Part shown: piece by piece, positions 9,977-27,730 of the stretch
How the letters are laid out: each line of letters opens with the position of its first letter
How positions within the stretch are numbered: the stretch's first letter is position 1
Virus record (IMG/VR): IMGVR_UViG_3300027809_000006
Span: 4,411 to 68,410 of that record
Direction: 5' to 3' (one strand)
DNA: 64,000 nucleotides
From: a virus
Lineage: Duplodnaviria; Caudoviricetes
Notes under the pieces: generated by a model
Database searches by the model: none
What the model was told of the DNA's origin: nothing
What the model saw: the letters and a program-made list of their open reading frames with translations, nothing else
Program-made: the position numbers and the translations under genes

Positions 9977-10270
9977 ATGCAACCTAGATTCGATGTTGAT
10001 GATGAGGTCAAATGTAATGATCACTTGCAATACATAGGTTTCCCTTCAAATAGAAGATATTATCTTCAAGGGTTAACCCGAAAGAAGAAATATTTTGTTG
10101 TTAAAGTGGTTAATTGGAGTGATGGTTCCCAATCCATTTGGGTTAAAACTAGATATAGTGAAACCATCCGTGGCCCATTTATCTGGACTAGGTTTAAATA
10201 TTATTATGAAACTGTTAGGATACTACAATACGATCCCAATCAACAAGGTGATACTGATGAAGATATTTAA
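9977..10270 (+). CDS. YDPxQQGD-tail family protein 1
   Basis: Starts MQPRFDVDDEVKC; ends LQYDPNQQGDTDEDI*. Confidence 0.85.
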   Translation: MQPRFDVDDEVKCNDHLQYIGFPSNRRYYLQGLTRKKKYFVVKVVNWSDGSQSIWVKTRYSETIRGPFIWTRFKYYYETVRILQYDPNQQGDTDEDI

Positions 10271-10469
10271 TAGAGCGCTCGTAGCAGCAGCCATGGGCTT
10301 CGTCCTTCTTGTTACCTTTGGGTGTGAAAGATATCCTGAATATCATCAAGCTTATAATGATTGTGTCTATCGACTCACCAAAAAGAGGATTAGTCCTCCT
10401 GAAAAATATGAATATTGTAGGTGGTTTGCTAAGCAGTATGTAGGTGTTCAAAATGAAATACACGAATAG
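10257..10469 (+). CDS. Putative lipoprotein
   Basis: ATG at 10257 inside the upstream tail repeat; MKIFNRALVAAAMGFVLLVTFGC (lipobox-like Cys). Confidence 0.65.
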   Translation: MKIFNRALVAAAMGFVLLVTFGCERYPEYHQAYNDCVYRLTKKRISPPEKYEYCRWFAKQYVGVQNEIHE

Positions 10470-10576
10470 GCATGGTGCCATTTGGTCCATTGTGGATCGT
10501 ATCCAGACAGCACCTGATATGCGCAAAACGATCCATCATGACAAAGAAACCTATCATCGGGACAGGGATTTGAAAA

Positions 10577-10945
10577 ATGCATTCCGTTTGTAAATCGTTT
10601 GAAGTTGGTAAGCTTTACAAAAAGAAGGGTCATATCGGCCTTTATAAATGTCTGAGTATCCACCTATTCAGGAAAGACGAACAGTGTGGTGTAATGCAAT
10701 ATGTACGCCCTGATGGTGTTGTGTCCAGTGACCCTGAGGACAAAGGGGATATTCCTTCTGTGTTCAAATGGGATGACACATGGTATGAACACAAAGAGCC
10801 TGTTGTCATAAAGGAACGGAGACTCGTTCTCATTGATGGGAATGATGTTTACCTCCCTACGCAAAAATCGTCATACGGCACAGTCATAGGTGAAATCGAG
10901 GTTGTCATCACCGATAGTAAGCTTATTGATGTGAGGGTTGTGTGA
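10577..10945 (+). CDS. SH3-like small phage protein (untagged)
   Basis: FEVGKLYK start; WYEHKEP motif. Confidence 0.7.
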   Translation: MHSVCKSFEVGKLYKKKGHIGLYKCLSIHLFRKDEQCGVMQYVRPDGVVSSDPEDKGDIPSVFKWDDTWYEHKEPVVIKERRLVLIDGNDVYLPTQKSSYGTVIGEIEVVITDSKLIDVRVV

Positions 10946-11292
10946 TGTTCGAGGTCGGTAAGAAGTATAAGGGAGTAAACACAGGCATTATCTTTACTTG
11001 TGTGTGGGCAAACAATAAGCAAGCTACCCTTACATCTGATATTAGTGGTATGGCTATCCTTGTTGAATGGGATAGGTCTGGTCCTTACTATAAAGAGTAT
11101 ATTGAACCCCGTAAGGAATACTATAACGCCTATAAGGATAGTAAGGGAGTGGTTACTTATAGTAATCCCTATGATGATGTCAAGACCGCAGACGCTGTGG
11201 CAAGAGGATATCTTGATTACTATGGCCGCCTTATCATGACCCATCACAGTGAAACACATGTGGACGTAGAGTTCCACCTCAAGAGAAAGTAA
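10942..11292 (+). CDS. SH3-like small phage protein (untagged)
   Basis: MFEVGKKYKG start; YKEYIEPRKEYYNAY; overlaps the previous stop. Confidence 0.75.
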   Translation: MMFEVGKKYKGVNTGIIFTCVWANNKQATLTSDISGMAILVEWDRSGPYYKEYIEPRKEYYNAYKDSKGVVTYSNPYDDVKTADAVARGYLDYYGRLIMTHHSETHVDVEFHLKRK

Positions 11293-11302
11293 AATACTTA
11301 GT

Positions 11303-11716
11303 ATGTTGGCAGTAGTTTATGGCACCCTCAAGAAGGGTTATTCGAACAATGGTTTCCTTCGTAATGCTACCTTTGTGCAGGGTGGTATTGTCCGTGGACA
11401 CAAGCTTTATTATGCTGGCTTCCCTGTTGCTGCCCCATCTGAGGGTGATTGCATCAAGGTTGAAGTGTGGGATATTGGTGATCCCTCTACGGACACAACA
11501 GCAGCAGCTACCTTGAAGGGTATGGACCGCCTTGAAGGCTATCATGAGGATAGTGAGAGGGGTAGCATGTACCTCCGTAGGGGTGTAACTATCTTTGCTG
11601 ACGATGGCACTCGTCTTGAAGGGCAGATGTATGTTGGCAATGCCCGTACATGGCGAGACTTCAAGGGTATGAGGGAGATGGGTAAAGATGAAACTGGCAT
11701 CTATCAATGGCCCTGA
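11303..11716 (+). CDS. Gamma-glutamylcyclotransferase (AIG2/GGCT family)
   Basis: VVYGTLKKG N-terminal motif, KVEVWDI and MDRLEGY (catalytic Glu). Confidence 0.9.
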   Translation: MLAVVYGTLKKGYSNNGFLRNATFVQGGIVRGHKLYYAGFPVAAPSEGDCIKVEVWDIGDPSTDTTAAATLKGMDRLEGYHEDSERGSMYLRRGVTIFADDGTRLEGQMYVGNARTWRDFKGMREMGKDETGIYQWP

Positions 11717-11978
11717 GGATTTTCAGGTAGGTCGTGTTATTGTACGGAATAATCCCAGACAAAGTAAGTATCGAGAAGAGTATGAAATTGTAGGTTCTCT
11801 TATTAATGGACAAATGAAATTTGAGGCTAATTCCTACGAAGGGTCAGTACTACTTTCTAAAAATACTTATAATTTTCGTGTACCTGAGGATTTCGGTACT
11901 TTAAGTGTTTGGGGTTATTACACAAAGGAACTCCAATATGACCCCATGCAACAAGGAGACAAGGATGAGGATATCTGA
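11688..11978 (+). CDS. YDPxQQGD-tail family protein 2
   Basis: FQVGRVIVR; ends LQYDPMQQGDKDEDI*. Confidence 0.8.
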   Translation: MKLASINGPEDFQVGRVIVRNNPRQSKYREEYEIVGSLINGQMKFEANSYEGSVLLSKNTYNFRVPEDFGTLSVWGYYTKELQYDPMQQGDKDEDI

Positions 11979-12123
11979 TAACATTGATCTTGAAGCTCAA
12001 CTCTTTGTTGAGGGGCGTAAAGCAGCAGCTTCGGCTTATCGTAGAGCCGTTAAGAATGTGAGGAAAGCACATTGGGTAATCAAGAGTTCAAGGGGCCAAA
12101 TACTACATACATCCAATGTGTGA
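11965..12123 (+). CDS. Small hypothetical protein
   Basis: ATG 11965 inside the tail repeat, preceded by AAGGAG; MRISDNIDLEAQLFVEGRK. Confidence 0.5.
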   Translation: MRISDNIDLEAQLFVEGRKAAASAYRRAVKNVRKAHWVIKSSRGQILHTSNV

Positions 12124-12329
12124 ACCGTATTAACAACCGAACTAATATGTCCTATAGGTATTTAACCCTTGGGGCTATTTATCCATTAGTACATGACCAT
12201 GGTCGTGTCTATAGTATTATGACACCAAGGGGTGAAACACATTACCCTAGCCGACAATTCAAAATTGTAACAAACCCTGAGCTTCGATATGATCCGAACC
12301 AACAAGGGGATAGAGATGAGGATATTTAA
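12072..12329 (+). CDS. YDPxQQGD-tail family protein 3
   Basis: Ends LRYDPNQQGDRDEDI*; TTG start after GAGGA. Confidence 0.8.
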   Translation: MGNQEFKGPNTTYIQCVNRINNRTNMSYRYLTLGAIYPLVHDHGRVYSIMTPRGETHYPSRQFKIVTNPELRYDPNQQGDRDEDI

Positions 12330-13604
12330 GTGACTGGTATTGACTTTATGGCAGGTCTTGCTGCCTCCGCTGCTGCTGATGCAAAGGGTGAAAAGAAGGA
12401 AGAAAAAACTATTACTTCAACCAGTGGTGTTAAGAAGGTGTTCTATCGTCAGGGGAATGTCTTTCAAATCATTGATGAACCGAAGTTTGATTTTCTTGAC
12501 AACCTCCCTGCTGGTACATATTCCATTTGTGCATCTATGGAAGGTTACTATCTTGAACGTCGAGATGACTTTGGTATTGACCATAAGGTGTATGGCATTG
12601 CCAACTCCCGTGCACAACGTATTATGAATACCTTTGAAGAACGTTCTGGTAATACCGGCCTTCTTCTTGAAGGTGAAAAAGGTTCAGGCAAAACACTGCT
12701 CACAAAGGTACTGGCCCGTGATTTCGTAGCTAAGGGTTATGTGTGCCTTCTGGTAAGTGGTGCCTTCTGTGGTCCGGGCTTTAATGACTTCCTTGCCAAC
12801 ATCAAACAGCCTGCATTGGTTGTTTTTGATGAGTTCGAGAAGATGTACAATGACGAGAAACAGACTCTGTTGTTGTCCACCTTTGATGGTTTGTTCAGTG
12901 CCAAGAAGCTTTTTGCTGTCACTGTCAACGACACCTACAAAGTGAATGCCTACTTCAAGAACCGTCCGGGTCGCTTTATGTATCGGTATAATTACACTGG
13001 TCTTGAAGACGAATTTATTAAGGAATATTGTGAGGACAACCTTAAAGACCAATCACAAATCCCAAAAATACTTACCTTTGCTACTGTTATGGGTAAATTT
13101 AACTTCGATATGCTCAAGCATATGGTGGAGGATATGAACCGTTATAAGGAAACAGTGGGGGATGTTCTCAAACACCTAAATATTCAAACAGATGGTAATT
13201 CCTATATTCGGGCACAACTTACCGCTATGTTTGATGATAAGGGAAATAAGATTGAACTTACTGAGTCTGATCTTAGACGAATTCATTCCATTCTTCCCTT
13301 TGGTTCATTCACCATTGAAGTTCATAAACAGATGGAAGAGGGTGATGATAAGAAGAAGGCTACTAAGGATGATGCCCTTAACCGTCTTTTGACTAGTGCC
13401 CTTAAACGTCGAAAAGAGCAGTATGGACACGAAGATGATGACGATGAGGATGAAGATGAAACAGCCTCAGTTATTATTAACGGCTCGAAGGACCTTACAA
13501 AGTTCACTCAGGAGCATATCATTTATCGTAATGATATTGGTGAATTTCATTTCCGTAAGGCTATTATGGAAGAAAAGAAACAGTTTGGAGGTATTCTTGA
13601 ATGA
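12330..13604 (+). CDS. AAA+ ATPase
   Basis: Walker A GEKGSGKT, Walker B VVFDEFEK, FKNRPGRF arginine-finger region. Confidence 0.92.
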   Translation: MTGIDFMAGLAASAAADAKGEKKEEKTITSTSGVKKVFYRQGNVFQIIDEPKFDFLDNLPAGTYSICASMEGYYLERRDDFGIDHKVYGIANSRAQRIMNTFEERSGNTGLLLEGEKGSGKTLLTKVLARDFVAKGYVCLLVSGAFCGPGFNDFLANIKQPALVVFDEFEKMYNDEKQTLLLSTFDGLFSAKKLFAVTVNDTYKVNAYFKNRPGRFMYRYNYTGLEDEFIKEYCEDNLKDQSQIPKILTFATVMGKFNFDMLKHMVEDMNRYKETVGDVLKHLNIQTDGNSYIRAQLTAMFDDKGNKIELTESDLRRIHSILPFGSFTIEVHKQMEEGDDKKKATKDDALNRLLTSALKRRKEQYGHEDDDDEDEDETASVIINGSKDLTKFTQEHIIYRNDIGEFHFRKAIMEEKKQFGGILE

Positions 13605-13828
13605 CACAAAAAATGTTCCGTATCTCTCCACTTCCCTATAAGGACGGAGAGGTTTGCGTGGTGGATATCAGTGAGGAAGGGGCTGACTGGCGTACTCTTC
13701 CTACTCCATTTCCATCTCGTGAAGAAGCAGAGAAATTCGTTGATGAGATGATTAAGGGTTTTGAAATCCTTGAAGCTTATCAAGTGAAGAACCCTCCCTA
13801 TCTGTACCCTAAAAGGTTGTTGAACTAA
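13601..13828 (+). CDS. Hypothetical protein
   Basis: 75 aa, overlapping stop/start with both neighbours. Confidence 0.7.
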   Translation: MTQKMFRISPLPYKDGEVCVVDISEEGADWRTLPTPFPSREEAEKFVDEMIKGFEILEAYQVKNPPYLYPKRLLN

Positions 13829-16137: not shown

Positions 16138-16629
16138 ATGAGAAACTTAGAAGATATGGTTGGTAAGACCTTTGTTGAAGTAGACGTTGGTGGAGTAGAT
16201 AATGCCTTCTTTGTCTTTCATACAGCTAGTGGAGAAAAATATAGGTTTATTCACCATCAGGATTGTTGTGAAAATGTTGATCTAATTGACTTTGATTACG
16301 ATGATCTTCAATTACTATTAAATAGTCCTATTCTTCTTGCTGAAGAACGCTCTTTGGAAAATGAACGTCCTGAAGGTTGGTATGAAGATGATGCTGAACA
16401 ATGGACCTTTTATTGTCTTGCTACTGTGAAGGGTCATGTTGACATTCGCTTCTTTGGTAGCTCTAATGGCTATTATGGTGTTGAGGTAGATGTAGAAAAA
16501 TGGGACCCTAATTTTGAAGTAAAATGGATGAATGGGATTACTAAAAAGGGACGATGGGTTCAAATACCTAAACCTTCAATATTAAAATATGATCCCACCC
16601 AACAGGGTGATAAGGATGAAGACATTTAA
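16138..16629 (+). CDS. YDPxQQGD-tail family protein 4 (conserved phage domain HHQDCCENV...WTFY...GSSNGYY plus tail)
   Basis: Recognisable widespread phage domain followed by LKYDPTQQGDKDEDI*. Confidence 0.88.
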   Translation: MRNLEDMVGKTFVEVDVGGVDNAFFVFHTASGEKYRFIHHQDCCENVDLIDFDYDDLQLLLNSPILLAEERSLENERPEGWYEDDAEQWTFYCLATVKGHVDIRFFGSSNGYYGVEVDVEKWDPNFEVKWMNGITKKGRWVQIPKPSILKYDPTQQGDKDEDI

Positions 16630-16655: not shown

Positions 16656-17333
16656 ATGGTTCAACATGCAGCAGTATCTACTACTTGCACGGCTTCTCAT
16701 ATTATCAATTGGGACATTCCTAATCTGAAGGCTGACAATCAGAAACTTCAGGTAAATGCCAGACTGTCAACTGTAGATTCTTTGATCAATCAGGGCTTCA
16801 AGCGTGACTTTGCTTTATTGTTCATCACAGTGACGGACAATCAGATGAAGCGTGGTGGACTGGATGAGTTCCTTCCTAAGTGTGGCTTTGAGCTTGCCTA
16901 TAAGGGTGAGAAGTTTGACGAAAATAAGGGTGAAGGTACACTCCATCGTCATAAAGAAACAGGTGATATTTACCTGTGGGCAACTTCTCCTAAGACCTAT
17001 CAGGAAGCTCTTGTGGCTTACAAGAAGGAACTCACGGAGTTGAAGGACAAGATCGATCCTCCGAAGAAGCCTGATCCGAAGCGTCAAGCCCTTCCCCGTC
17101 TTTTGTTGTCTGCCCTCCGTAAGAAGGGTTTTGTTGTTGACAACGCAAGTGTGGATAATCCACTGCATCAGGTTCTTACTGCTGGCAGTGAAACCAAGTT
17201 GGCCCGCTTCCTTACAGTTGAGTACGGCTGGGACCCACGCTCTATGGAGAAAACGTGGGGTGTCGCATGGACACAGAAAACCACTCGTGCTTTGAAGGAA
17301 GCTCACGAGGCATGGAAAAATGAGCTTATCTGA
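16656..17333 (+). CDS. Hypothetical protein
   Basis: 225 aa, AAAGGA SD, host-like codon use; no family recognised. Confidence 0.8.
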   Translation: MVQHAAVSTTCTASHIINWDIPNLKADNQKLQVNARLSTVDSLINQGFKRDFALLFITVTDNQMKRGGLDEFLPKCGFELAYKGEKFDENKGEGTLHRHKETGDIYLWATSPKTYQEALVAYKKELTELKDKIDPPKKPDPKRQALPRLLLSALRKKGFVVDNASVDNPLHQVLTAGSETKLARFLTVEYGWDPRSMEKTWGVAWTQKTTRALKEAHEAWKNELI

Positions 17334-17622
17334 TCCGTCATGGGAAATTGTTAATGGGAAGGACCTCCAGATAGGTGATGAGCTTATAGGGAAGTTCTTC
17401 CCTTGGGGTATAGACAAATTCTCTGTCCCTTGGATAGTTAAATCCTTACCTACTTTGACTACTCTATTTACTGAACCTCGTTGGAGAATTAGTATGAGAA
17501 ATTCAGAGTCAGGTAGTTTATTTCCTAGTTTCTCATATACCCTTGATCAACAGTTTGTCCGTAAGCTTAAAGAGTTGAAGTACGATCCAATGCAGCAGGG
17601 AGATACTGATGAAGACATTTGA
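17320..17622 (+). CDS. YDPxQQGD-tail family protein 5
   Basis: DLQIGDELIG; ends LKYDPMQQGDTDEDI*. Confidence 0.85.
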   Translation: MSLSDPSWEIVNGKDLQIGDELIGKFFPWGIDKFSVPWIVKSLPTLTTLFTEPRWRISMRNSESGSLFPSFSYTLDQQFVRKLKELKYDPMQQGDTDEDI

Positions 17623-17887
17623 AAGGATAACCCCTGATCAAATAAAAGTCGGTGATCGTATTTGTTCTAATTTGTGGGTCCCTAATGGTGGAGATAAACC
17701 ACCACCTCAACATACTCTTTTTTGGAAAGTAGTTAAGGTAGATGATTTACAGGTTTATATTACAGGTAATGGAATTGTTACTCCTGTTCACTACACAAAA
17801 GCTCAACACTCATGGTGGCGAGAAGACCTTTACCCACAACTAAAATATGATCCTATGCAACAAGGCGACAAGGACGAAGATGTCTAA
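17609..17887 (+). CDS. YDPxQQGD-tail family protein 6
   Basis: QIKVGDRIC; ends LKYDPMQQGDKDEDV*; its start codon lies inside the tail of protein 5. Confidence 0.85.
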   Translation: MKTFERITPDQIKVGDRICSNLWVPNGGDKPPPQHTLFWKVVKVDDLQVYITGNGIVTPVHYTKAQHSWWREDLYPQLKYDPMQQGDKDEDV

Positions 17888-18488
17888 ATCAGTTTATGTA
17901 GTGGGTGAAGACAAACCGGTATCCCGTATGTTCTTCGAACGTCACTACGCTATTATTAATGACCTCGAAAAGGCAGACATTATTTGTTGGATTGGTGGCG
18001 CGGATATCAATCCCGCCTTGTACGATCAGGATATTAATGAAGAGGTTGTCAAACAAATTAACAATAAACATGATGAACGTGATTTAAAGGCTTGGCAAGA
18101 TAGTCGTCCTGATCAGTTCCTTGTGGGTATCTGCCGTGGTGGACAGTTCCTTAATGTAATGAATGGTGGTTCCCTTTATCAGCATGTCAGTGGACATAAC
18201 ACTCCCCATGATATTCATGATACTCTATTTGGTGAAGAGGTAAGGGTTAGTTCTTCCCATCACCAATTGATGATCCCTACAAAAGATGCTGAAACCATCG
18301 CTTATATTGAGGATCATGGTTGGAATTTCACTGGTGAAAGGGGATTTGAAGCTCGTCCTAAAATTGAATCAGAGGTTCTCTGGTACGACCACTCACGGTC
18401 TTTGTGTTTCCAAGGACACCCCGAATGGTATTCCCCTGCCAGTACGCAGGATTATTTCTTTAGAGTTCTGGAGAAACTTTATGGTTGA
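17880..18488 (+). CDS. Class I glutamine amidotransferase / peptidase C26-like
   Basis: GGADINP, nucleophile elbow GICRGGQ, SSHHQ, FQGHPE (Cys-His-Glu triad); ATG 17880. Confidence 0.9.
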   Translation: MSKSVYVVGEDKPVSRMFFERHYAIINDLEKADIICWIGGADINPALYDQDINEEVVKQINNKHDERDLKAWQDSRPDQFLVGICRGGQFLNVMNGGSLYQHVSGHNTPHDIHDTLFGEEVRVSSSHHQLMIPTKDAETIAYIEDHGWNFTGERGFEARPKIESEVLWYDHSRSLCFQGHPEWYSPASTQDYFFRVLEKLYG

Positions 18489-19389
18489 TTACAAGAATGT
18501 ATGGAACGGTCGTCGTCATGCTTATATCTTTGCTACGGATGATGGTGTCATCCACGAACGTCTCGCCCTCCCGTGCTACGGAGAGTTGCGGAAATACGAA
18601 AGTACTCATACTGGTGACTGCACTCAGCCCTTAGATGGCAAGCCGGGTGATCTTCATTACCCCTTCCCTAAGCAAGGTAATCCGGTAGGTGTTATCTTCC
18701 CTTTCAATAATGATTGTGGAATGCAACACAACGATGGCAGTAAAACCGACATTATGTTCAAAGGGTTCTTTGGTGCTGAAAGCCCATGGCTCGGAAGAAT
18801 GGAAACTAATCGTACATTCCATCTTCTCAATGGTCGTATTCAGGGAGTTGAGTTCAAAGATGCTAACTTTGACCCTACGGTTATTGTTAACTTGTGTAAA
18901 TGTTTTCGCACTAACCTTGCTCGTGCAGGGGAATACGTAAAGCTTCTTGAAAATGGTCTGAATGTGAAGGAAGCTATTGCTGCTATCCTTCTTCATGGTG
19001 GTCGTATCGAGGCTGGTCTTTCTCAGCCGGGTGGGTACACTGTTGCTCACAACCTTTCCCTCAAGCGTCTATTTGCCGCACAACCTAATGATCATACTGG
19101 TGGTCTTTTCAAAGATCGTATCGATTATAATAGAAAGAGGATGCAGGATGTTTTCCAATACGATGAGACGCCTGTTGAGGGCTACGGATGGTTCTACAAA
19201 GGAATGCAAAAAGCTGGCTCTCCTGTATACCGGGGGCAAGCTATCGAAAACTTCAGCTACAAACGTTTTACTGACCGGGTGCAGCAAGTCTTCGCAGATC
19301 GCATCAAGCAGGAAAAGGACCCTGTACACGTTTCATACATCTGGACAACCACGAAGGGTGTAACCAATGATACCGTTAAAAGTAGGTGA
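18481..19389 (+). CDS. Hypothetical protein within the ligase cluster
   Basis: ATG 18481 (MVDYKNVWNGRRH) overlapping the previous stop; about 302 aa. Confidence 0.75.
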   Translation: MVDYKNVWNGRRHAYIFATDDGVIHERLALPCYGELRKYESTHTGDCTQPLDGKPGDLHYPFPKQGNPVGVIFPFNNDCGMQHNDGSKTDIMFKGFFGAESPWLGRMETNRTFHLLNGRIQGVEFKDANFDPTVIVNLCKCFRTNLARAGEYVKLLENGLNVKEAIAAILLHGGRIEAGLSQPGGYTVAHNLSLKRLFAAQPNDHTGGLFKDRIDYNRKRMQDVFQYDETPVEGYGWFYKGMQKAGSPVYRGQAIENFSYKRFTDRVQQVFADRIKQEKDPVHVSYIWTTTKGVTNDTVKSR

Positions 19390-19609
19390 CAGAGTAGAAG
19401 TCATATCCAGTGATATAGGACACAGAGAATTTATTGGTAAAATTGGTACTGTAATTAAGTGTAAAAATGGTAGTGGTTTTGACGATCTTTCTGCTGTTGA
19501 AATGGATAGTGGAGAAACGATTGTTATGTTTACTTACCGTTTTAAACCTATTGTGACTGAACTTAAGTACGACCCTTCACAACAAGGGGACAAAGATGAC
19601 GACATTTAG
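19367..19609 (+). CDS. YDPxQQGD-tail family protein 7 (KOW/SH3-like)
   Basis: LKVGDRVEVI...GKIGTVI; ends LKYDPSQQGDKDDDI*. Confidence 0.88.
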   Translation: MIPLKVGDRVEVISSDIGHREFIGKIGTVIKCKNGSGFDDLSAVEMDSGETIVMFTYRFKPIVTELKYDPSQQGDKDDDI

Positions 19610-19853
19610 TGTTGGTGATCGTGTAAGATATGAATATTACAATCGTCCTAATCATAGGTGGAATGGTATGATTGGTACAGTTACAGGATTTAGAGGTAGT
19701 AATGTAACTGTAAGTTGGGATAAAGGTTCTCGTTTATTAGATGAATCTCCTGATGAAGATTTCTTTTGTCACGTTCCTTGTAATCTTACAATATTAAACC
19801 TTGAATTAAAATATGATCCCACCCAACAGGGTGACAGAGAGGAAGATATCTAA
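19596..19853 (+). CDS. YDPxQQGD-tail family protein 8 (KOW/SH3-like)
   Basis: FSVGDRVRY...GMIGTVTG...VTVSWD; ends LKYDPTQQGDREEDI*. Confidence 0.88.
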   Translation: MTTFSVGDRVRYEYYNRPNHRWNGMIGTVTGFRGSNVTVSWDKGSRLLDESPDEDFFCHVPCNLTILNLELKYDPTQQGDREEDI

Positions 19854-20960
19854 ATGTGTGGACTTTTTGGAGTGGCCGGTCCCGGCTTACAGATGCCTGA
19901 CCTCAAAATCCTTAAGGACTTGGGGACAGTAAGTATGCTTCGTGGTACGGATGGTGCTGGTATTTTCCAAATCCGTTCCAATAGCAAGCATTACTCTCAG
20001 GAAGAAGGTTACAAAACTTGGGGTAACTGGATTGACCTTATGGGTGATGTGGAACGGAAGAAGTCTTCTCGTCTTATTCATTCAGTTAGTGTCGATGTGG
20101 TTATGTGTCATGTCCGTGCTGCCACTCGTGGTGCACTTAGGGATGAAAACTCTCATCCGTTTGCTTTTTCAAATCTGGTAGGTGCACACAATGGCACTCT
20201 CAAGGATAAGCGATATGAACATGTCTCAAAGACTGACAGTGAGCTTATGTTTGCTGATATCAACAATCGTGGTATGGAAGCAGTCCTTACTGAACTCGAC
20301 AAAGACTCTGCGTTTGCAGTCTCTGTGTTTGATCGTAAGCGTCAGGTGCTACGGTTTGCCCGTAACGAATTGCGTCCTCTTGCTTTTGCTTTTCTTAAAG
20401 ACCGTGGTGTAATGTATTGGGCATCCGAAAAGGATATGCTCAAGTATGTTCTCTATCGTGCTGGTGAAGAAGCATTATTTTTTAACCTTCGGGCAAATAA
20501 GATTGTTTCACTTAATCCTGAAATGATTACCAAAAAGAATATTGAGGATGGCCCATTGGTTAAAATCCTTAAGTGTGATGCTGAATTGGATCGTCCCCTT
20601 CCTACAACTTATCAACGAATTGAAGATGCTCGTAAGGCACGAGAAGAAGCAGAAGCTAAAAAAGCTGCTGGTGTTGAACCAACAGAAACTAACACTACTC
20701 AGATAACTACACAACAGATGAGTAATGTTGTTCCTTTTGTTCCTAACAAGGAGGATAAGGAAACAAAAAAGGTTGGTTCAACAACACGATTCTCGGTGGA
20801 GAGTCAGTATCGGAAATGTTCTTGCGGTGGCAGGACACTCGATCTTCTAGCACAAAGTCTGGCCAAGAGGGGGAAACACACTAAGTTTACATACAACTCT
20901 GATACTAATGTTTTCCGTTGTGATGGATGCCCAACAGATGCCAATGTTCAAACAGGGTGA
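19854..20960 (+). CDS. Class II (Ntn) glutamine amidotransferase
   Basis: N-terminal MCG nucleophile, RGTDGAG, HVRAAT, HPF, AHNGT, TDSE. Confidence 0.92.
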   Translation: MCGLFGVAGPGLQMPDLKILKDLGTVSMLRGTDGAGIFQIRSNSKHYSQEEGYKTWGNWIDLMGDVERKKSSRLIHSVSVDVVMCHVRAATRGALRDENSHPFAFSNLVGAHNGTLKDKRYEHVSKTDSELMFADINNRGMEAVLTELDKDSAFAVSVFDRKRQVLRFARNELRPLAFAFLKDRGVMYWASEKDMLKYVLYRAGEEALFFNLRANKIVSLNPEMITKKNIEDGPLVKILKCDAELDRPLPTTYQRIEDARKAREEAEAKKAAGVEPTETNTTQITTQQMSNVVPFVPNKEDKETKKVGSTTRFSVESQYRKCSCGGRTLDLLAQSLAKRGKHTKFTYNSDTNVFRCDGCPTDANVQTG

Positions 20961-21186
20961 TCGTATTTGGTCCATCATTAACGGTCGCCGAGAAGAAGCA
21001 ACCGTTGATCGTGTTTCAGATGACCGATTACACAGAGGTCGTACAGTTGTATGGGCTTATTGGGATAGTGATCAAAAACAAGGTAAAGATCGTGTAGGTC
21101 CATATTATACTGATATAGAAAGTTGTTATCATATAGAACTTCAATATGATCCCACCCAACAGGGTGATAGGGATGAAGACATTTAG
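20938..21186 (+). CDS. YDPxQQGD-tail family protein 9 (SH3-like); start approximate
   Basis: MFKQGDRIWS...VVWAYWD; ends LQYDPTQQGDRDEDI*. Confidence 0.85.
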   Translation: MPMFKQGDRIWSIINGRREEATVDRVSDDRLHRGRTVVWAYWDSDQKQGKDRVGPYYTDIESCYHIELQYDPTQQGDRDEDI

Positions 21187-21196
21187 GAGATAAAAG

Positions 21197-21973
21197 ATGT
21201 CTATTACTGCAATGTTCTGCTACAATCAGGCTTCGGAAGGTGGTAGCAATCTGGCTGACGCACTTGGTATCCGCCGCATCAAGCACGGTAACTCCAAGTT
21301 TGTTCCTTCTGCTTCGAAGACTATCCTTAATTGGGGTGCTTCTTCTGAACGGTTCCCGGCTGCATATCGTGTGTGCAATATTCTGAACCACCCGGATCGG
21401 ATTGACACTGCCTGCAACAAAACTCGATCATTCCAAGCTTTTCAGGCAGCGGGTGTGTCCATTCCTGAGTTCACCACAGATCGTGCAACAGCTGTTCAGT
21501 GGCTGGAAGCTGGTAATATGGTGTTTGCTCGTACCCAACTGACGGCACATAGTGGTCGTGGTATTGAGATCATGGATCCCCACCATCCTGAGACATGGGA
21601 AGTGACTGCCCCTCTGTATGTCAAGTACATCCCCAAGAAGGATGAATATCGCATCCATGTATTCCGTGGTAATGTGATTGATGTACAGCGGAAAGGTCTT
21701 CGTGCTGAACTTCAGGGTACTGAAGGTGTAAACTTCAAGGTACGTAACCTTGCCAATGGCTTTGTTTATGTTCGTAATGATGGTCGTCAGACACCTGCTC
21801 GTGTACTTGAAGTAGGTCGTGCTGCTGTGGCTGCCCTTCAGTTGGACTTTGGTGCTGCTGACATCATCTATAATGAACGTAATAACCAAGCCTTTGCACT
21901 TGAGGTTAATTGTGCACCCGGCTTGACTGGCACTACTGTTGACAATTATGCACAGGCACTTTCACAGGTGTAG
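21197..21973 (+). CDS. ATP-grasp peptide ligase (RimK-like, phage type)
   Basis: ILNWG, CNKTRSF, HSGRGI, YVKYIPKKDEYRIHV, LDFGAADII, LEVNCAPG. Confidence 0.92.
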   Translation: MSITAMFCYNQASEGGSNLADALGIRRIKHGNSKFVPSASKTILNWGASSERFPAAYRVCNILNHPDRIDTACNKTRSFQAFQAAGVSIPEFTTDRATAVQWLEAGNMVFARTQLTAHSGRGIEIMDPHHPETWEVTAPLYVKYIPKKDEYRIHVFRGNVIDVQRKGLRAELQGTEGVNFKVRNLANGFVYVRNDGRQTPARVLEVGRAAVAALQLDFGAADIIYNERNNQAFALEVNCAPGLTGTTVDNYAQALSQV

Positions 21974-21974
21974 T

Positions 21975-22214
21975 ATGTTTAAGGTAGGTGATGAAGTAAT
22001 TGCTGATGCTAGTTTCGGAAGGACTATTAGTTGTCATATAACAAATATAACCAATAGTGATACAGTAATTTGGGGAACTTGGTATTGGGACAATGATCCT
22101 GCAAGGGTAAATCCAACCTATGGTTTCATGAATGCATGTGATTGTCAATTAGTAAGTGCAATTGAATTAAAATATGACCCCTTACAACAAGGGGATAAAG
22201 ATGAGGATATTTGA
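21975..22214 (+). CDS. YDPxQQGD-tail family protein 10 (SH3-like)
   Basis: ATG 21975; MFKVGDEVIA...VIWGTWYWD; ends LKYDPLQQGDKDEDI*. Confidence 0.88.
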   Translation: MFKVGDEVIADASFGRTISCHITNITNSDTVIWGTWYWDNDPARVNPTYGFMNACDCQLVSAIELKYDPLQQGDKDEDI

Positions 22215-22216
22215 GA

Positions 22217-22846
22217 ATGCGCCAGAAGTATAAGGGCGAGGACATTCGTGCTCGTCTTCATGGTACTATCCTTCGATACAAGGGTGTACCTTACCTTGCA
22301 GACGTTGATGCAGGGGGTATGGTCGGTATGATTGACATCTGCACGGGCAATTTGATTACTCGTGTATATGGTGATGATGAAGGTATTGACATTAGTTCGA
22401 TTAATATTGGTTTTGTCAATGTCATTGATCCTGACTATAAAACTGCTGTTTATCTTAAGCGGGAACCCCTCCGTCGATTTAAGCAGCCGTTGGAAATTGA
22501 CTTCCTTACTCAGAAGCCACTCCGTCAGGGTATGACCTCCATCCCTAAAAATAAGATTATGGCTGCTGGTTTTGTTGACGCAGTGTTGGGTAAGTTTCCT
22601 CCATTGGAAGAAGCTATCAACTTAATCACAAAAAGAGGTTGGCACTCTGTTGCTCTCTCTCGTGATGTGGCAATCAAGCGGGAAAGTGATTCCCTCAAGG
22701 TTTACTTGAAGGATACTGAGGTTGGCTTTATGAAGATTGGTGATAAGGATCGTAAGCTCATTGTCCCCACGTCTGATGTAAGTTATTATCACTGCACCTA
22801 TTTGAATGACCTTAAAGGTTGGACTGTCATCGAAGGTATTAAATAA
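22217..22846 (+). CDS. Hypothetical protein within the ligase cluster
   Basis: DIRARLHGTILRY...INIGFVN...VALSRDVAI; ATG 22217 after GAGGA. Confidence 0.75.
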   Translation: MRQKYKGEDIRARLHGTILRYKGVPYLADVDAGGMVGMIDICTGNLITRVYGDDEGIDISSINIGFVNVIDPDYKTAVYLKREPLRRFKQPLEIDFLTQKPLRQGMTSIPKNKIMAAGFVDAVLGKFPPLEEAINLITKRGWHSVALSRDVAIKRESDSLKVYLKDTEVGFMKIGDKDRKLIVPTSDVSYYHCTYLNDLKGWTVIEGIK

Positions 22847-23889
22847 TGACACAGCTTGCAACGTTTTATGACATCTTTCGTCAACTCAAGGTATACGGTG
22901 GAGACCGTGTCCGTGGGGATTATGGTGTTGAGATTGAAACTGAAACGGAAAAGAAATATGAGTATCCCAACCTTAAGTATTGGGGTGCCACAAAAGATAA
23001 TAGCCTTCGTGATTGGGGGGTAGAGTATGTTCTAAGGTCTCCTATGTCCATTCCTGAGCTGGAAAAAGCTCTTGTGGAATTTGATATTTGTGAGAAGAAG
23101 TACAAATTTAAGAAGGGTTCTATTTCTACCAGTGTGCATGTCCATGTCAATATGCTTAATGAAACTCCCCTGACATTGGCGAACTTCCTTACAACATATG
23201 CACTGATGGAAAATCTTCTTATCCGTTATAGTGGACCTGATCGTCTATCCAATTTGTTTTGTCTCCCCATTTGTGATGCAGAAGGTGTGAATACAAACTT
23301 GGTGAACATTCTTTCGAGTATAAATCGGAACCAATATACCAAGCTTCGTATTAGTGTGGATAAGTGCAAGTATGGAGCATTGAATCCTGCTACTTTGACT
23401 ACACTTGGTACGGTGGAAATCCGTTCATTCCGTGGTGAGACTGACACAAAAGTTATTCAGAAGTGGCTTGAAATCATTGACAAGATGAAGCAATTCGCTC
23501 GTCAATCTAAGCTTACCCCTCCTGATATCCTTAAGTTGTGGAAAGACAATCGTTCCACCTTGGTCAATATTATTTTCCAAGAGTATGCTGCTGAACTTCG
23601 TTATCGTGATCCTTTAACCAAGAAGGATATCACTGATGACCTTATTCGGCAGAATCTTAAGTATGCAGCAGACTTGGCTTGTGTCTCCAAAGATTGGACT
23701 AAGTTTGGTGTGTATCGTATCAAGCCGGTTTATAAAGAAAAGATCAAGGGTGCACTAGAAGAACTTTCCAATACCTACTTCAAGGTTCCATGGGATAGTC
23801 TGCCTTACCATGAACGTCTCGTTGTCATTGAAAAGTATCACCTTCTGAACCCTAACGTTCGTGTGGTGGATGCTGATGGTGATATTTGA
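22846..23889 (+). CDS. Putative amidoligase (glutamine synthetase-fold COOH-NH2 ligase)
   Basis: YGVEIETE, DNSLR..GVEYV, TSVHVHVN, TVEIRSFRG motifs. Confidence 0.88.
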   Translation: MTQLATFYDIFRQLKVYGGDRVRGDYGVEIETETEKKYEYPNLKYWGATKDNSLRDWGVEYVLRSPMSIPELEKALVEFDICEKKYKFKKGSISTSVHVHVNMLNETPLTLANFLTTYALMENLLIRYSGPDRLSNLFCLPICDAEGVNTNLVNILSSINRNQYTKLRISVDKCKYGALNPATLTTLGTVEIRSFRGETDTKVIQKWLEIIDKMKQFARQSKLTPPDILKLWKDNRSTLVNIIFQEYAAELRYRDPLTKKDITDDLIRQNLKYAADLACVSKDWTKFGVYRIKPVYKEKIKGALEELSNTYFKVPWDSLPYHERLVVIEKYHLLNPNVRVVDADGDI

Positions 23890-24172
23890 TTTAGGCACCA
23901 GAGTACGTCTTAAATGTGATAGTACACAAGGTGGTGATTACCCCGGTGAATATGGTTTGAAAGATCAAACCGGGGAAATTGTCAGTGCATTTGATACTTC
24001 TGATGGCACATACTTAGTACAATTTGATGAACCTGTCCCTTATAATACTGCGAATGAATGGGATGATGAAGATCAAAGTTGGTGGTGCAAAGTAGAAGAA
24101 CTTGAATTTGAAACACTCCCAATGTTAACATACGACCCTAATCAACAGGGCGATAAGGAAGAAGATATTTAA
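23876..24172 (+). CDS. YDPxQQGD-tail family protein 11 (SH3-like); start approximate
   Basis: IFDLGTRVRL...QTGEIV...YLVQFDE...WWCKVEELE; ends LTYDPNQQGDKEEDI*. Confidence 0.88.
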   Translation: MVIFDLGTRVRLKCDSTQGGDYPGEYGLKDQTGEIVSAFDTSDGTYLVQFDEPVPYNTANEWDDEDQSWWCKVEELEFETLPMLTYDPNQQGDKEEDI

Positions 24173-24173
24173 A

Positions 24174-24890
24174 ATGGCTACAATTCGTATTGGTGCAGAC
24201 CCCGAGGGTTTTATTGTAAATCCGGCTGGTGATTTTATTCCAGCCTTTGGTTTTGTGCCGGGTGACAAACAGAACCCCTTCAAGTTGGATGGTGGTGCTG
24301 TACAGGTGGATGGACTGGCAGTTGAGTTCAACATCGATCCTGTCACTAATGAGGATGACTTCAACAAAAATATTGTTAAGGTTGTTGCTCAGATTGACGA
24401 AATGGTTAAACAGGTCGATAAAGACTTGGACCTCCGTTGGACCCCTGTGGCCCGGTTCCGTCAGGCACAGTGGGATATGTCTCCTGAACAGCAGAAGATT
24501 CTTGGTTGTGATCCTGACTACAATATCAGGGGTGATGTTAATCCTAATCCTTCTGAGAAGTTGGAGAATGAACCTCTCCGTACTGCTGCTGGTCATATCC
24601 ACATTGGTTGGTTGGACAATCTGATTGAAGATGTCAATGATAATGCACACTTCCAGTTCTGCCTTGAAATTGCTCAGGGATTCTATGATGGTCGTCTTTC
24701 CACATATGTACCACACACACAGGAAGAGAGTGAACGGTTGTCCTATTATGGTCATTCCGGTGCATGGCGTCCGAAGAAGTATGGTGTAGAACTTCGTGCA
24801 CCTTCCAATCTGTGGGTCCGTTCGGAAGCTTCGCGTAAGTTGATCTTCAACGAGACAAGGAAACATTTCAATGAGCTTACAGGTCTTTAA
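24174..24890 (+). CDS. phiEco32-like COOH-NH2 ligase type 2
   Basis: IGADPEGF, DGLAVEFNI, GCDPDYN, LRTAAGHIHIG, RPKKYGVELRAPSN. Confidence 0.92.
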   Translation: MATIRIGADPEGFIVNPAGDFIPAFGFVPGDKQNPFKLDGGAVQVDGLAVEFNIDPVTNEDDFNKNIVKVVAQIDEMVKQVDKDLDLRWTPVARFRQAQWDMSPEQQKILGCDPDYNIRGDVNPNPSEKLENEPLRTAAGHIHIGWLDNLIEDVNDNAHFQFCLEIAQGFYDGRLSTYVPHTQEESERLSYYGHSGAWRPKKYGVELRAPSNLWVRSEASRKLIFNETRKHFNELTGL

Positions 24891-25146
24891 CACTTGGGAT
24901 GAAATCAATATCGGGGATGAGATATCATGGGGTGATGGTAAAAGTCATCAACTTAAAGTGACAGGAGTACCAAAGGGAGGTAGATCATTACTTACAGGTA
25001 TTCATAAGAAGGGTAAGTTTGGAGAAAACCCCGGTTGGTCTACTATTATAGCTGGTGATCTTGATAGTCTACTAGGTTGGAAAAAGATTATCACGGAACT
25101 AAAATATGATCCTATGCAACAAGGCGACAAGGACGAAGATATCTAA
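24871..25146 (+). CDS. YDPxQQGD-tail family protein 12
   Basis: INIGDEISW; ends LKYDPMQQGDKDEDI*. Confidence 0.85.
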   Translation: MSLQVFNTWDEINIGDEISWGDGKSHQLKVTGVPKGGRSLLTGIHKKGKFGENPGWSTIIAGDLDSLLGWKKIITELKYDPMQQGDKDEDI

Positions 25147-26294
25147 TGTGTGTTATCATTACACTGGCCGCAGGAGCGACTATTAATAAACTCCAATTGT
25201 TTAATGCAGTTTATAACAACTGGCATGGCTTTGGATTGATCCTTCGAGATGGCAACAATAAGATTGAGCTTATCAAAGAGTTCAGTCCTGAAGGTACTGA
25301 CCCGGAGAGAGTATGGAAGCTTCTTGAAGATAATAAGGATTGCATTCGTTATCTTCACGTCCGTCACTCTACTAAGGGTGCACAGGATGAGACGAATGTT
25401 CAGCCCTTTGAAGTTTACAACTCGTCATCACGGCAAGTGTTCTTCATGCATAATGGTACACTGACTGGCTTTGGTGCTGTCACTACCTATGGTAATCAGA
25501 ACCCAACTGGTAAGTCTGATACTCTTGACTTCTGTGAAAAGATTCTTCAACCGGCTCTCCTTCGTTGGTCTGGTGAAAATGGTAAGGCTGACTATACAGA
25601 CGATTTATTCTGGAAATTGGTTTGTGACAAACAGTGGACATATAACTCCACAGGTCTGTTTGTTTCCAACGATTTAGATATGAAGCGCGTCGGTAACGGT
25701 TGGTCTCTTTATAAGCATCCTGATGATAGTAGTGAAGGTGAAGTATGGACCTCCAACACTTCCTATTATGATAAGGTTCAGCGTGGACCAATGTTTCAAA
25801 AGTTGGAAACAGAACGCAAGGCACGAGAAGAAGCAGCAGCGGCACAAAAAGCAGCGGAAAACAAGAAGGAGGTAAACAGCGGCGGTTCTTCTGCACTTTA
25901 CGAAGACCTGAACGATGATATTCCCTTTCTTGGAGGCCATGGACACGGGTTTACTCTGGGCAACTCCGATGGTGTCAAGGAATGGGCGAACTCGAACTGT
26001 AATAAAAGCACCAAAGTACTCAATGCTATCCGAGATACTATCGATAGTTGGGATTTGGACGATCCTGATAACCTTGCTCGCCTTTGCAACGTTACATATG
26101 ATGAATGGGTAGCTGTTGTAGAAGCTGAGAATGAGTTCACTATCGCTGCTCTCCTTGAACATCTGTCGGATGAATTCCACAAGCTCAACCTTCGTAAGCG
26201 TCTTCTCGAAAAGAAGAACGACCGTCAGGAAGCTCGTATCCGTGAGTTCAATATCACAAAGAAGAATGAAGAGAATGTCTCAAAGGTTGCTTAA
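25146..26294 (+). CDS. Second class II (Ntn) glutamine amidotransferase
   Basis: N-terminal MCVII, NWHGFG, HVRHST, QPF, MHNGTL, SDT. Confidence 0.88.
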   Translation: MCVIITLAAGATINKLQLFNAVYNNWHGFGLILRDGNNKIELIKEFSPEGTDPERVWKLLEDNKDCIRYLHVRHSTKGAQDETNVQPFEVYNSSSRQVFFMHNGTLTGFGAVTTYGNQNPTGKSDTLDFCEKILQPALLRWSGENGKADYTDDLFWKLVCDKQWTYNSTGLFVSNDLDMKRVGNGWSLYKHPDDSSEGEVWTSNTSYYDKVQRGPMFQKLETERKAREEAAAAQKAAENKKEVNSGGSSALYEDLNDDIPFLGGHGHGFTLGNSDGVKEWANSNCNKSTKVLNAIRDTIDSWDLDDPDNLARLCNVTYDEWVAVVEAENEFTIAALLEHLSDEFHKLNLRKRLLEKKNDRQEARIREFNITKKNEENVSKVA

Positions 26295-26868
26295 GAGTGA
26301 TGATCATCTCATTTCGTTGAGTGATACAACACGAAACACTCCTGATTGGATGGAACTTAAAAGGGATACTCGTGATGAGTTCCCTATCTTTGTTACTGGA
26401 AGTATGCGCCGTTGGAGGGAGAATGCTCGCTTCCTCTCCGGTTGTAATTATTATGGGATGGCTCAGACATGGGGTGAAAACTTCATCTTGACTCGTCCTA
26501 GAGCACGACCCGGTCAGAACACCGTACCTGATCCGATTATGTTCCAGTTAGATAGTGACAAAACTAATTGGGAACAAACGGGTGAGTACTTCGATCAGGA
26601 TCGTTTGAGAGGTGTCGAGGGGGAGGTGTACGGTGTACCCCTTCGTAAATTAGCCCAACTAGATATTCATGAACAAAATGGTGATGGTGTCAATAGGCAG
26701 AAGCTTTATGTCAATCTCATCAACCCCAAACAGAAGCGTGCAAACGTTCGTTGCTTTGCCTATGTTGCCGATGTAGATGAGTATATGAAGACATATGCCC
26801 CTTCGGATAACCTTGAATATTGTGGCACTATCGCTACAGGTGGAGGTAAGGAGTTTTATCGTGCTTAA
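26275..26868 (+). CDS. Second gamma-glutamylcyclotransferase-like protein; start approximate
   Basis: IFVTGSMRR, VEGEVYGV, LAQLDIHE, C-terminal RQKLYV..CFAY pattern. Confidence 0.7.
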   Translation: MSQRLLKSDDHLISLSDTTRNTPDWMELKRDTRDEFPIFVTGSMRRWRENARFLSGCNYYGMAQTWGENFILTRPRARPGQNTVPDPIMFQLDSDKTNWEQTGEYFDQDRLRGVEGEVYGVPLRKLAQLDIHEQNGDGVNRQKLYVNLINPKQKRANVRCFAYVADVDEYMKTYAPSDNLEYCGTIATGGGKEFYRA

Positions 26869-26870
26869 CC

Positions 26871-27119
26871 TTGGAGATAAGAATGAAGATATCTGATTGG
26901 CTTCTCAGTCATTATAAAAAGAAGTTTGGTAATAATCTTGTTGTATTAAGTCATGAACATGGTTCTACTTGGAACGATGGTGGTGGATGGAACAACACTG
27001 TAATTAAAGTAGACGGTAAAATATTACAAATTTATATGCCCTCTGATTATAACACTAATAAATTAGAAGTAACTGAGATGAAGGCTGTACTCAAAGAGGT
27101 TTATGTACCAGCCAAATAA
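26871..27119 (+). CDS. Hypothetical protein
   Basis: 82 aa in operon context. Confidence 0.65.
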   Translation: MEIRMKISDWLLSHYKKKFGNNLVVLSHEHGSTWNDGGGWNNTVIKVDGKILQIYMPSDYNTNKLEVTEMKAVLKEVYVPAK

Positions 27120-27129
27120 GGATTTTAAA

Positions 27130-27480
27130 ATGGCAAAACATAATATTGGTGATATTGTATGTTATACAAATAAGAATGAACGACTTGTTGTATATGGTGA
27201 AGTTGTTGCAATTTGGAGGGATAGTTGGTCTGGTAGTAGGCAAGTTATGATTGAACCTTTGGATGAATCTTTTAATCATTCTCGTTTGTTTCATACTACA
27301 GTAAGTACTACTCAAGATTACCAATTTAATCCAAATAAGTTCGGTAATCATTCTGTTAATCTTCGCCGCTCACTTCGTAGATGTATTTGGGCACCTATGG
27401 TAAGTAAAAATCTTGTGGCAGCATATCCCTCAAAGGATTATGATCCTACTCAAAATGGTGACAGAGATGAGGACATTTAA
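27130..27480 (+). CDS. YDPxQQGD-tail family protein 13 (SH3-like)
   Basis: ATG 27130; HNIGDIVCY...YGEVVAI; ends KDYDPTQNGDRDEDI*. Confidence 0.85.
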   Translation: MAKHNIGDIVCYTNKNERLVVYGEVVAIWRDSWSGSRQVMIEPLDESFNHSRLFHTTVSTTQDYQFNPNKFGNHSVNLRRSLRRCIWAPMVSKNLVAAYPSKDYDPTQNGDRDEDI

Positions 27481-27730
27481 AGTTGGTGATCAGGTAGTAT
27501 TTATTAGGGATAATAGAGAAGGTGGCTCAAGTGTAGGGGCCAAAGGTGATGAAGCAACTGTTATAGAATATCATAATAACACTAGTGGGTACTATGCACG
27601 TATATTAAGAGTTAGAATGAAAAGTGGTCGTACTAAAGGGGCATCTTGGTGGTGTCATGAAGATGATATAAGGGTATCAGAATTAACTTATGATCCCAAC
27701 CAACAAGGAGATACTGACGAAGATATTTAA
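27467..27730 (+). CDS. YDPxQQGD-tail family protein 14 (SH3-like)
   Basis: ATG 27467 inside the previous tail; FKVGDQVVF...WWCHEDDIR; ends LTYDPNQQGDTDEDI*. Confidence 0.88.
   Translation: MRTFKVGDQVVFIRDNREGGSSVGAKGDEATVIEYHNNTSGYYARILRVRMKSGRTKGASWWCHEDDIRVSELTYDPNQQGDTDEDI

Follow-up and report, generated by a model that had tools for sequence, protein, structure and literature searches.

A shared acidic C-terminal tail on fourteen early-region proteins of an uncultured podophage and on histidyl-tRNA synthetases of some Rhizobium strains

The stretch of DNA considered here (the window; 64,000 nucleotides) comprises positions 4411-68410 of the IMG/VR virus record IMGVR_UViG_3300027809_000006, a genome of 68,410 bp. 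Fourteen open reading frames (ORFs) on the + strand, all of them within positions 9977-27730 (taken from the ORF listing of 9000-29000), end in one and the same acidic peptide, which a codon print of the last 20 codons gave as Y-D-P-x-Q-[Q/N]-G-D-[K/R/T]-[D/E]-[D/E]-D-[I/V]-stop. What selection maintains is the peptide and not the DNA, together with its exact place at the end of the protein. Judging from sequence comparison, there is about an even chance that the tail serves as a portable address tag at the C-terminus and that one common partner reads it; the most plausible candidate is a phage-encoded protein from a clade-specific enzyme set.

The tail is 13 to 16 residues long, and its core is preceded in 11 of the 14 copies by E-L or x-L and then K, Q, R or T. 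Across the 14 ORFs all four Gly codons, all four Pro codons, both codons each for Tyr, Gln, Asp and Glu, and all three stop codons are in use, as had been stated in a first-pass annotation of the window. The mean pairwise identity of the 13 tail codons of the 14 copies was 0.96, 0.89 and 0.45 at codon positions 1, 2 and 3, respectively, as compared with 0.30, 0.38 and 0.37 for the 13 codons 5' of the tail; the pattern over codon positions was alike in three related genomes. Because positions 1 and 2 are conserved and position 3 reaches only 0.45, it is the peptide that is selected, and conservation at the DNA rather than the amino-acid level, which the annotation had named as fatal to its own proposal, is not what the codons display. 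The recurrence of the tail is not due to chance: the ending EDI was found in 13 of the 519 window ORFs of at least 35 aa (every other tripeptide ending at most twice), and a degenerate DNA pattern for the tail gave 13 matches in the genome, all forward, vs 0 for the reversed control. The tail DNA of the sixth and twelfth copies (stops 17887 and 25146) is identical across 14 codons, which shows that duplication or conversion has also taken place recently. Pfam, PHROGs, the PDB sequences (profile search) and the literature searched yielded no description of the tail, in line with the annotation, which had not recognised the motif from any described family.

The 14 tagged ORFs were all recovered on the strand and with the stops given in the annotation. 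The first three span 9977..10270 (97 aa, terminus ILQYDPNQQGDTDEDI), 11688..11978 (96 aa, terminus ELQYDPMQQGDKDEDI) and 12072..12329 (85 aa counted from a TTG, the start being uncertain; terminus ELRYDPNQQGDRDEDI). ORF 4 (16138..16629) encodes 163 aa. ORF 5 (17320..17622, 100 aa) carries inside its tail the ATG of ORF 6 (17609..17887, 92 aa), which terminates in ...DEDV and in turn holds the ATG of a peptidase C26 gene inside its GAT GTC codons. ORFs 7 (19367..19609, 80 aa; MIPLKVGDRV...) and 8 (19596..19853, 85 aa) encode putative small barrels, the latter with a marginal match to DUF4314, and are followed by ORFs 9 (20908..21186, 92 aa), 10 (21939..22214, 91 aa from a TTG, with the ATG of MFKVGDEV as the likely start), 11 (23861..24172, 103 aa from a GTG) and 12 (24871..25146, 91 aa). 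ORF 13 (27103..27480, 125 aa) is the sole copy with Q-N in place of Q-Q, and ORF 14 (27413..27730; MRTFKVGD...) probably starts within the ORF 13 tail, at the ATG at 27467. The exact protein of ORF 12 (P0004) is present in the protein database on two contigs, the longest of which, at 129,572 bp, has roughly double the length of the genome and is possibly a concatemer or a misassembly.

Regarding the bodies of these proteins, when 39 tagged proteins of three genomes were aligned, they had in common the tail, a G-x-V motif and, at the N-terminus, the motif F-x-x-G-D-x-V. A body profile compared with known barrels matched the Spt5 KOW domain (E 5.6e-4) and, more weakly, MIB1 and the ribosomal proteins L24 and L21e; the Pfam families SH3_12 and DUF4314 gave marginal matches to a few carriers only. 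Most carriers look like divergent paralogues of one SH3/KOW-like small-barrel family. The body of ORF 4, in contrast, is not a small barrel and belongs to DUF7448 (E 1.6e-23, 83.5 bits, cut-off 27) and phrog_2650. The annotation had found the bodies not alignable by eye beyond a short N-terminal motif; apart from ORF 4, a true exception, they are not unrelated, most of them sharing F-x-V-G-D-x-V and G-x-V. Likewise its 'diverse effector set' was an overstatement for what appear to be mostly paralogous small barrels, DUF7448 being the one that differs. Untagged barrels are present as well (e.g., 10577-10945, 10942-11292 and 14872-15246). Because a DUF7448 body is tagged and some barrels are not, the tail is best described as a module added to the fold and not as a part of it.

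As the annotation had suggested, the tail was sought in other proteomes. A tail-only profile of the last 30 residues (30 columns), compared with 1.84 billion representative proteins at E<=1e-3, matched 259 protein clusters; among the 150 matches listed, the proteins were 40 to 165 aa long and the match ended at the last or second-to-last residue in all. This result supersedes an earlier word-index protein search with 8 matches and, together with the codon-position identities, bears out the proposal that the exact terminal position is selected. In 151 of these tagged proteins Y, Q, G and both flanking D were invariant and Y-D-P-x-Q was near-invariant; the terminal residue was I in 144, V in 4 and L in 3, the penultimate residue was D in all 151, and the bodies fell into 64 BLAST components. 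RHph_I3_11, a cultured phage of Rhizobium (68,071 bp), shares synteny with the window and has 14 tagged genes, and the phages RHph_N3_13 and RHph_N3_19 also match the window. Of two complete genomes of uncultured phages, G001 has 14 tagged genes and G002 has 12; six further clade members represented by amidoligase-anchored loci (L101-L106) have 12 to 14 tails each, and a complete lytic genome of 69 kb (G185) is also tail-bearing. On this evidence the tail marks one clade, consisting of 65-70 kb podophages akin to RHph_I3_11 with 12 to 15 tagged early genes per genome.

The middle part of the tail varies by lineage. The variant QMGDR is typical of G002, Q[TAS]GDT of the Rhizobium phages, Y[SD]P[ED]QNGD of L056 and L105, NGEGET of L101, and QQ[PRA]D or QEPD of L106 and G185. 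The only universal positions are Y-D-P, four residues, and [DE]-x-[DE]-[DE]-D-[IVL]-COOH. The tails of L101 (Y-D-P-N-G-E-G-E-T-D-D-D-I) are free of Gln. Such lineage-specific variants within a genome are consistent with co-evolution of the tail and a factor that the genome itself encodes.

The tail-coding pattern was further scanned over one genome per prokaryote species. The matches were phage contigs binned into metagenome-assembled genomes and two Rhizobium chromosomes; the carrier in both chromosomes was histidyl-tRNA synthetase (HisRS), with the terminus ...Y-D-P-A-Q-A-G-D-T-D-D-D-I, and no other ORF there ended in this way. HisRS of Rhizobium binxianense BJ04 (L038:6179-7750) has a 17-residue C-terminal extension that ends in the tail, and tailed or decayed HisRS were also found in L035, L042, L048, L090-L095 and L100. 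Among these, the high-GC metagenome contigs L042 and L048 carry other HisRS tails, N-Q-V-G-D-T-E-E-D-I and A-Q-N-G-D-R-D-D-D-I. The tail was present on HisRS in one of 30 members of a Rhizobiaceae sample and in seven of 121 Rhizobium species genomes, one of the seven being tip-decayed. In the protein database the tail is intact in 7 HisRS clusters, and in roughly a dozen others its tip has decayed (e.g., ...GDTDENA, ...GDTDDKD, ...GDPSDGI and ...QQPYDDADI). Tail-less HisRS of 506-507 aa are found in most R. leguminosarum strains and in another R. binxianense record. The literature search returned nothing on the HisRS extension or on the RHph phages.

The GC content at third codon positions (GC3) of the hisS tail is 0.38 vs 0.82 for the gene body, where an equally low value occurred in just 2 of 491 windows; the clade phages have a GC content of 41-45%. 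This low GC3 suggests that the hisS tail came to the host by transfer from a phage. When species are compared, the 7-residue linker of hisS is altered at most positions, and changes in the tail are confined to the variable x position, the I/V position and synonymous sites. That the linker diverges while the tail is kept suggests that the tail is under selection in some hosts. A prophage junction at hisS was rejected as an explanation; the hisS-hisZ-hisG synteny is intact, with no similarity to phage DNA beyond the tail.

Two further copies are prophage-borne. An ORF of 72 aa with the terminus HKYDPTQAGDTEDDV (...Y-D-P-T-Q-A-G-D-T-E-D-D-V) was found in another Rhizobium genome (L113:9814-10032, equal to G144:C2, about 27814-28032; L096:1324-1542); it adjoins a P2-like prophage tail module with tape-measure-like and gpD-like ORFs, and there is no amidoligase cassette nearby. 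An ORF of 59 aa with the terminus RYDPTQEPDDEDDV (...Y-D-P-T-Q-E-P-D-D-E-D-D-V; G186:C1:44891-45067, - strand, seen in L116) is the last gene of a 45,070-bp IMG/VR provirus record with a GC content of 58% and no PF12224 gene, and its tail variant is that of the lytic phage G185 (L115, L126). The portability that the annotation had claimed for the tail is borne out by its occurrence on DUF7448, small barrels, a bacterial HisRS and prophage ORFs.

In the window, the tagged genes are interleaved with a set of genes for amide-bond enzymes, all on the + strand. These encode a gamma-glutamyl cyclotransferase (GGCT; 11303..11716, PF06094), present in all clade members examined; a peptidase C26 / class-I glutamine amidotransferase (17880..18488); a first class-II (Ntn, Cys-2) glutamine amidotransferase (GAT-II; 19854..20960), which starts M-C and has a Cys-rich C-terminal end; a RimK-like ATP-grasp ligase (21197..21973, phrog_2599, E 7e-74); an amidoligase (22846..23889, PF12224, E 4.7e-9, 36.9 bits, cut-off 22); a COOH-NH2 ligase (24174..24890, phrog_3815); a second GAT-II (25146..26294), which also starts M-C and occurs only in the tail-bearing clade among the phages compared; and a second GGCT/AIG2-like protein (p245; 26131..26868, PF06094, the real start being probably after 26131), likewise restricted to the tail-bearing clade. 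Both GAT-II match GATase_6/GATase_4. The proteins p225 (16656..17333) and p302 (18481..19389) belong to no family, and p211 (22211..22846) belongs to phrog_11055; p225 occurs in tail-bearing genomes only. The core of the PF12224 amidoligase cassette was found in 110 phage records, and the gene order of the island, just 5' of the primase-helicase gene, is similar to that of Pseudomonas phage PA11. Present in every tail-bearing genome or locus examined and not in the outgroups are p225, the second GAT-II and two GGCT-like proteins.

Regarding p225, an invariant N-terminal cluster (His-4, Thr-9, Cys-11, Thr-12 and Ser-14) and an invariant 12-residue linker between two domains (K-I-D-P-P-K-K-P-D-P-K-R; KIDPPKKPDPKR) were observed. 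In the orthologues of the second GAT-II the Ntn domain is conserved, the charged linker varies and the C-terminal part is helical; seven of eight end in A-A (K-V-A in the window copy), which recalls ClpX-type C-terminal signals.

If the tail is an address tag, one partner would grip the free acidic end by its carboxylate and the terminal Ile/Val, with Y-D-P as a probable second anchor, and this shared reading would commit all of the early small barrel proteins to the same fate. The partner would most likely, if conjecturally, be phage-encoded and come from the clade-specific extension of the island, i.e., p225, the second GAT-II or the GGCT-like proteins. It could ligate to, amidate or dock at the acidic end, in the manner of RimK with ribosomal protein S6 and of tubulin-tyrosine ligase with alpha-tubulin, whose tails are the substrates of these enzymes. 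The phage tail resembles those tails in being flexible and acidic with a required free end, and a RimK-like ATP-grasp ligase is encoded among the tagged genes; it differs from them in that they end in Glu and belong to one protein each, whereas here the end is Ile, Val or Leu on 14 proteins. The Rhizobium HisRS tail and the copies on single prophage genes would have been taken from such phages and, conjecturally, would compete for that partner or serve as decoys or tripwires for it. The full combination, namely a phage-encoded tagging or docking handle together with repeated copying by hosts and prophages as a decoy, competitor or abortive-infection tripwire, is held to be quite unlikely as a whole.

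Several observations weigh against an address tag read by an island enzyme. To our knowledge, an Ile/Val end is not accepted by the known ATP-grasp tail ligases. Gln and Gly, invariant in the window, are replaced in L101 and L106, which argues against a chemical role of these residues. This tail was not found in the cassette-bearing outgroups (phage PA11, Vibrio phage VPp1 and loci L107-L112), and the core enzymes of the island, which those phages possess, consequently do not need the tail. No homologue of p225 or of PF12224 was found in the tail-bearing and tail-less Rhizobium genomes searched, so that the host-side copies reside in genomes without either. The link between tail and ligase genes envisaged in the annotation accordingly stood within the clade, where every genome and long contig examined has both, and failed outside it, with outgroup ligase phages lacking the tail and host copies lacking the ligase. 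The co-occurrence of the tail with the clade-specific genes is moreover a single evolutionary event and not a set of independent contrasts, because one clade is compared with outgroups only. Part of the tail uniformity within a genome may stem from recent duplication or gene conversion and not from co-evolution. Finally, no reader was found by models of p225 and p302, by one co-folding job or by host homologue searches.

The AlphaFold2 models of p225 and p302 had pLDDT values of 72.7 and 60.3, respectively. The p225 model had its best Foldseek match to GNAT proteins at a weak E of 0.05, and a VIA-align Z of 5.7 that was no higher than that of unrelated rows; the p302 model gave no Foldseek match, and profiles of p225 and of the tail gave none among the PDB sequences; ESM Atlas look-ups added no usable information. 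A single co-folding job with p225, p302, the second GAT-II and the 80-aa tagged protein, run without controls, gave an ipSAE of 0.00. A function of the invariant Gln as gamma-glutamyl donor for the Ntn amidotransferases was considered and dropped, as the L101 tails are free of Gln; both GAT-II keep, in our reading of the sequences and their alignment, residues typical of enzymes that bind free glutamine. As a universal reader p302 is unlikely, being not found in the tail-bearing loci L103 and L105. The small protein p75 (27776-28003) was rejected as clade-specific, since small Cys-rich proteins lie at the same place in the outgroups. A 424-aa AAA-type ATPase (12330-13604, phrog_2376), which lies among the tagged genes and was not found in G001, G002, RHph_I3_11, PA11 or VPp1, was rejected as a reader on account of its being unique to this genome.

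Alternatively, the tail could dock on a conserved host protein, with the phage sending its small proteins to one hub that the rhizobial HisRS uses or competes for. Acidic, hydrophobic-ended tails dock on basic pockets of polymerases and repair proteins; the bacterial SSB C-terminus ends in D-D-D-I-P-F, and the tails of T7 gp2.5 and gp4 bind the T7 DNA polymerase. The tail described here has a comparable acidic run, a single hydrophobic terminal residue and a free carboxylate, a T7-like replication module lies directly downstream in the same phage, and the tail is found on host-side proteins in genomes without the phage enzymes. The carriers in the phage, however, are small early barrels and a DUF7448 protein and not replication proteins (the primase-helicase, 28037-29587, has no tail and ends in ...EKGLTI), the tail has an additional invariant Y-D-P block, and there are 12 to 15 carriers per genome. 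On the host side, the HisRS tail is present in about seven of 121 Rhizobium species genomes, is strain-variable and is often tip-decayed, which would be unexpected of an ordinary host interaction; the low GC3 speaks for transfer from phage to host and not for mimicry of a host motif, and the lineage variants of the middle part fit a fast-evolving phage partner more easily. Docking on a host protein is considered unlikely.

The tail might also be a shared degradation or timing signal by which the tagged early proteins are removed together at the switch to replication, through a host protease or a phage adaptor; destruction of a tailed host HisRS upon infection would then abort the infection. 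Consistent with this, all tagged genes lie in the early region, which ends exactly at a promoter before the replication genes: a strong sigma-70-like match (27732..27760, + strand; TTGACT-17-TATAAT, 11 of 12 matches, with TG) follows right after the last tail stop at 27730, and its location downstream of all tail copies was confirmed as annotated. C-terminal degrons, the ssrA tag among them, typically occupy exactly such a terminal position, and only one essential host protein carries the tail, in a strain-variable manner. On the other hand, known bacterial C-terminal degrons are non-polar and not acidic, no clade-wide protease or unfoldase was found (the AAA ATPase belongs to this genome only), and the homologue of a trypsin-like peptidase (39040-39696) was not found in G001. 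A degradation signal is therefore given little probability.

The tail DNA may in addition take part in translation of the neighbouring genes. At many junctions the ATG of the next gene lies within the G-AT-G-A of the D-[DE] codons, 6-7 nt past the GGAG of Q-G-D, and in 35 of 54 cases the tail itself or its stop codon includes a start from which a frame of 45 or more codons is open; about 20 of these starts are ATG and the remainder are GTG in GGTGA, which are possibly spurious. A fossil half-tail (26867..26896, + strand; N-L-G-D-K-N-E-D-I-stop), in a frame that is otherwise non-coding, keeps only the GGAGA...ATG part, i.e., the Shine-Dalgarno sequence and start of a gene beginning at 26883. 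Because of these in-tail ATG junctions and of the fossil that keeps this very half, the 3' half of the tail DNA appears to do double duty. That the tail has no function as a peptide, and was kept because the following gene takes its Shine-Dalgarno sequence and start codon from it, and spread by tandem duplication and gene conversion, as the in-tail starts, the likeness of CAAGGAGA in Q-Q-G-D to a ribosome-binding site, the retention of just that part in the fossil, the 14 identical codons of some tail pairs and the short LENE tail on similar small proteins of CVT22-like phages might suggest, is very improbable, and the codon data already refute it for the most part: the residues are retained although third codon positions are close to saturation, tails are equally conserved when the next gene starts 1-40 nt downstream, Y-D-P-x-Q lies 5' of any start signal, is near-invariant in the 151 proteins and is exactly the part lost in the fossil, and the tail is kept on HisRS although hisZ starts about 180 nt away.

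New in the present analysis are the census of 259 clusters by profile, the codon-position test, the Gln-less and Gly-less variants, the list of clade-specific genes, the GC3 contrast in hisS, the two prophage-borne copies and the fossil half-tail. Among known systems, the phage cassette of amidoligase and gamma-glutamyl enzymes (PF12224 neighbourhoods) was reportedly described by Iyer, Abhiman, Burroughs and Aravind in 2009. It occurs in phages of the PA11, VpV262, phiEco32 and LUZ24 types, and we know of no protein substrate described for it. In agreement with this cassette, the window has the PF12224 amidoligase, the COOH-NH2 ligase, the RimK-like ATP-grasp ligase, a class-II Ntn amidotransferase, the peptidase C26 and GGCT; unlike it, the present clade has in addition p225, a second GAT-II, two GGCT-like proteins and 12 to 15 tagged genes. 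A passage of PMC10580990 cites the 2009 cassette paper for a proposed role in cell-wall modification.

Pup-like modifiers are likewise small proteins with a conserved C-terminal peptide, encoded near a glutamine-synthetase-like amidoligase and amidohydrolases. The tagged proteins, however, have no G-G-Q/E end (all 14 end in D-[IV], all 151 relatives in D-[IVL]) and appear as folded barrels, not as disordered proteins; regarding Pup partners, Pfam named only PF12224 for the ligase, and no search was aimed at PafA/Dop or a proteasomal ATPase. By these sequence features, the tail would not belong to a Pup-like modifier. A closer parallel in gene arrangement is the 47,636-bp record IMGVR_UViG_2706796794_000001 (L108), in which about 20 small F-K-x-G-D-x-V barrels, all ending in [ST]-L-E-N-E, are encoded by genes interleaved with the amidoligase cassette and with replication genes. 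This LENE tail of CVT22-like phages resembles the present one in that arrays of small barrels with a common ending are interleaved with the same cassette, and differs in that its 4-5 residues largely coincide with the ribosome-binding site of the next gene, whereas the present tail has 13-16 residues, is selected as a peptide and recurs as a copy on host proteins. As an analogy only, mammalian NLRP1 uses the mimic of a protease site as a host tripwire for a viral enzyme; in both cases a host protein has a copy of a virus-typical motif with a patchy, fast-changing distribution, although for the HisRS tail an effect on infection is conjecture only.

Elsewhere in the window, a pyrimidine-dimer DNA glycosylase of the T4 endonuclease V type (PF03013) is encoded at 13828-14319; the block that holds it (12330-16037) has almost no counterpart in the related genomes compared, with one weak match in G002. 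The gene at 8699-9088 encodes a Phage_VG64 lipoprotein (PF25682, E 3e-55) that is kept in all four tail-bearing genomes; its PHROGs label, recombination directionality factor, is doubtful given the lipoprotein signal. The sole tRNA gene of the window is tRNA-Leu(TAA), at 7575-7652.

Short C-terminal motifs are the means by which many cellular machines choose their clients; we know of almost none that mark a whole set of phage early proteins. A natural experiment is at hand in the cultured pair of RHph_I3_11 and Rhizobium, together with Rhizobium strains with and without the HisRS tail. If the tail is a modular docking or modification handle, it might serve as a tool, and if the combined account of tagging and decoys were true, a 13-residue peptide would be a currency of the arms race between phage and host. 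An identified reader could give the widespread and unexplained phage amidoligase cassette a client or substrate, and could reveal whether phage tags copied by bacteria and prophages function as decoys.

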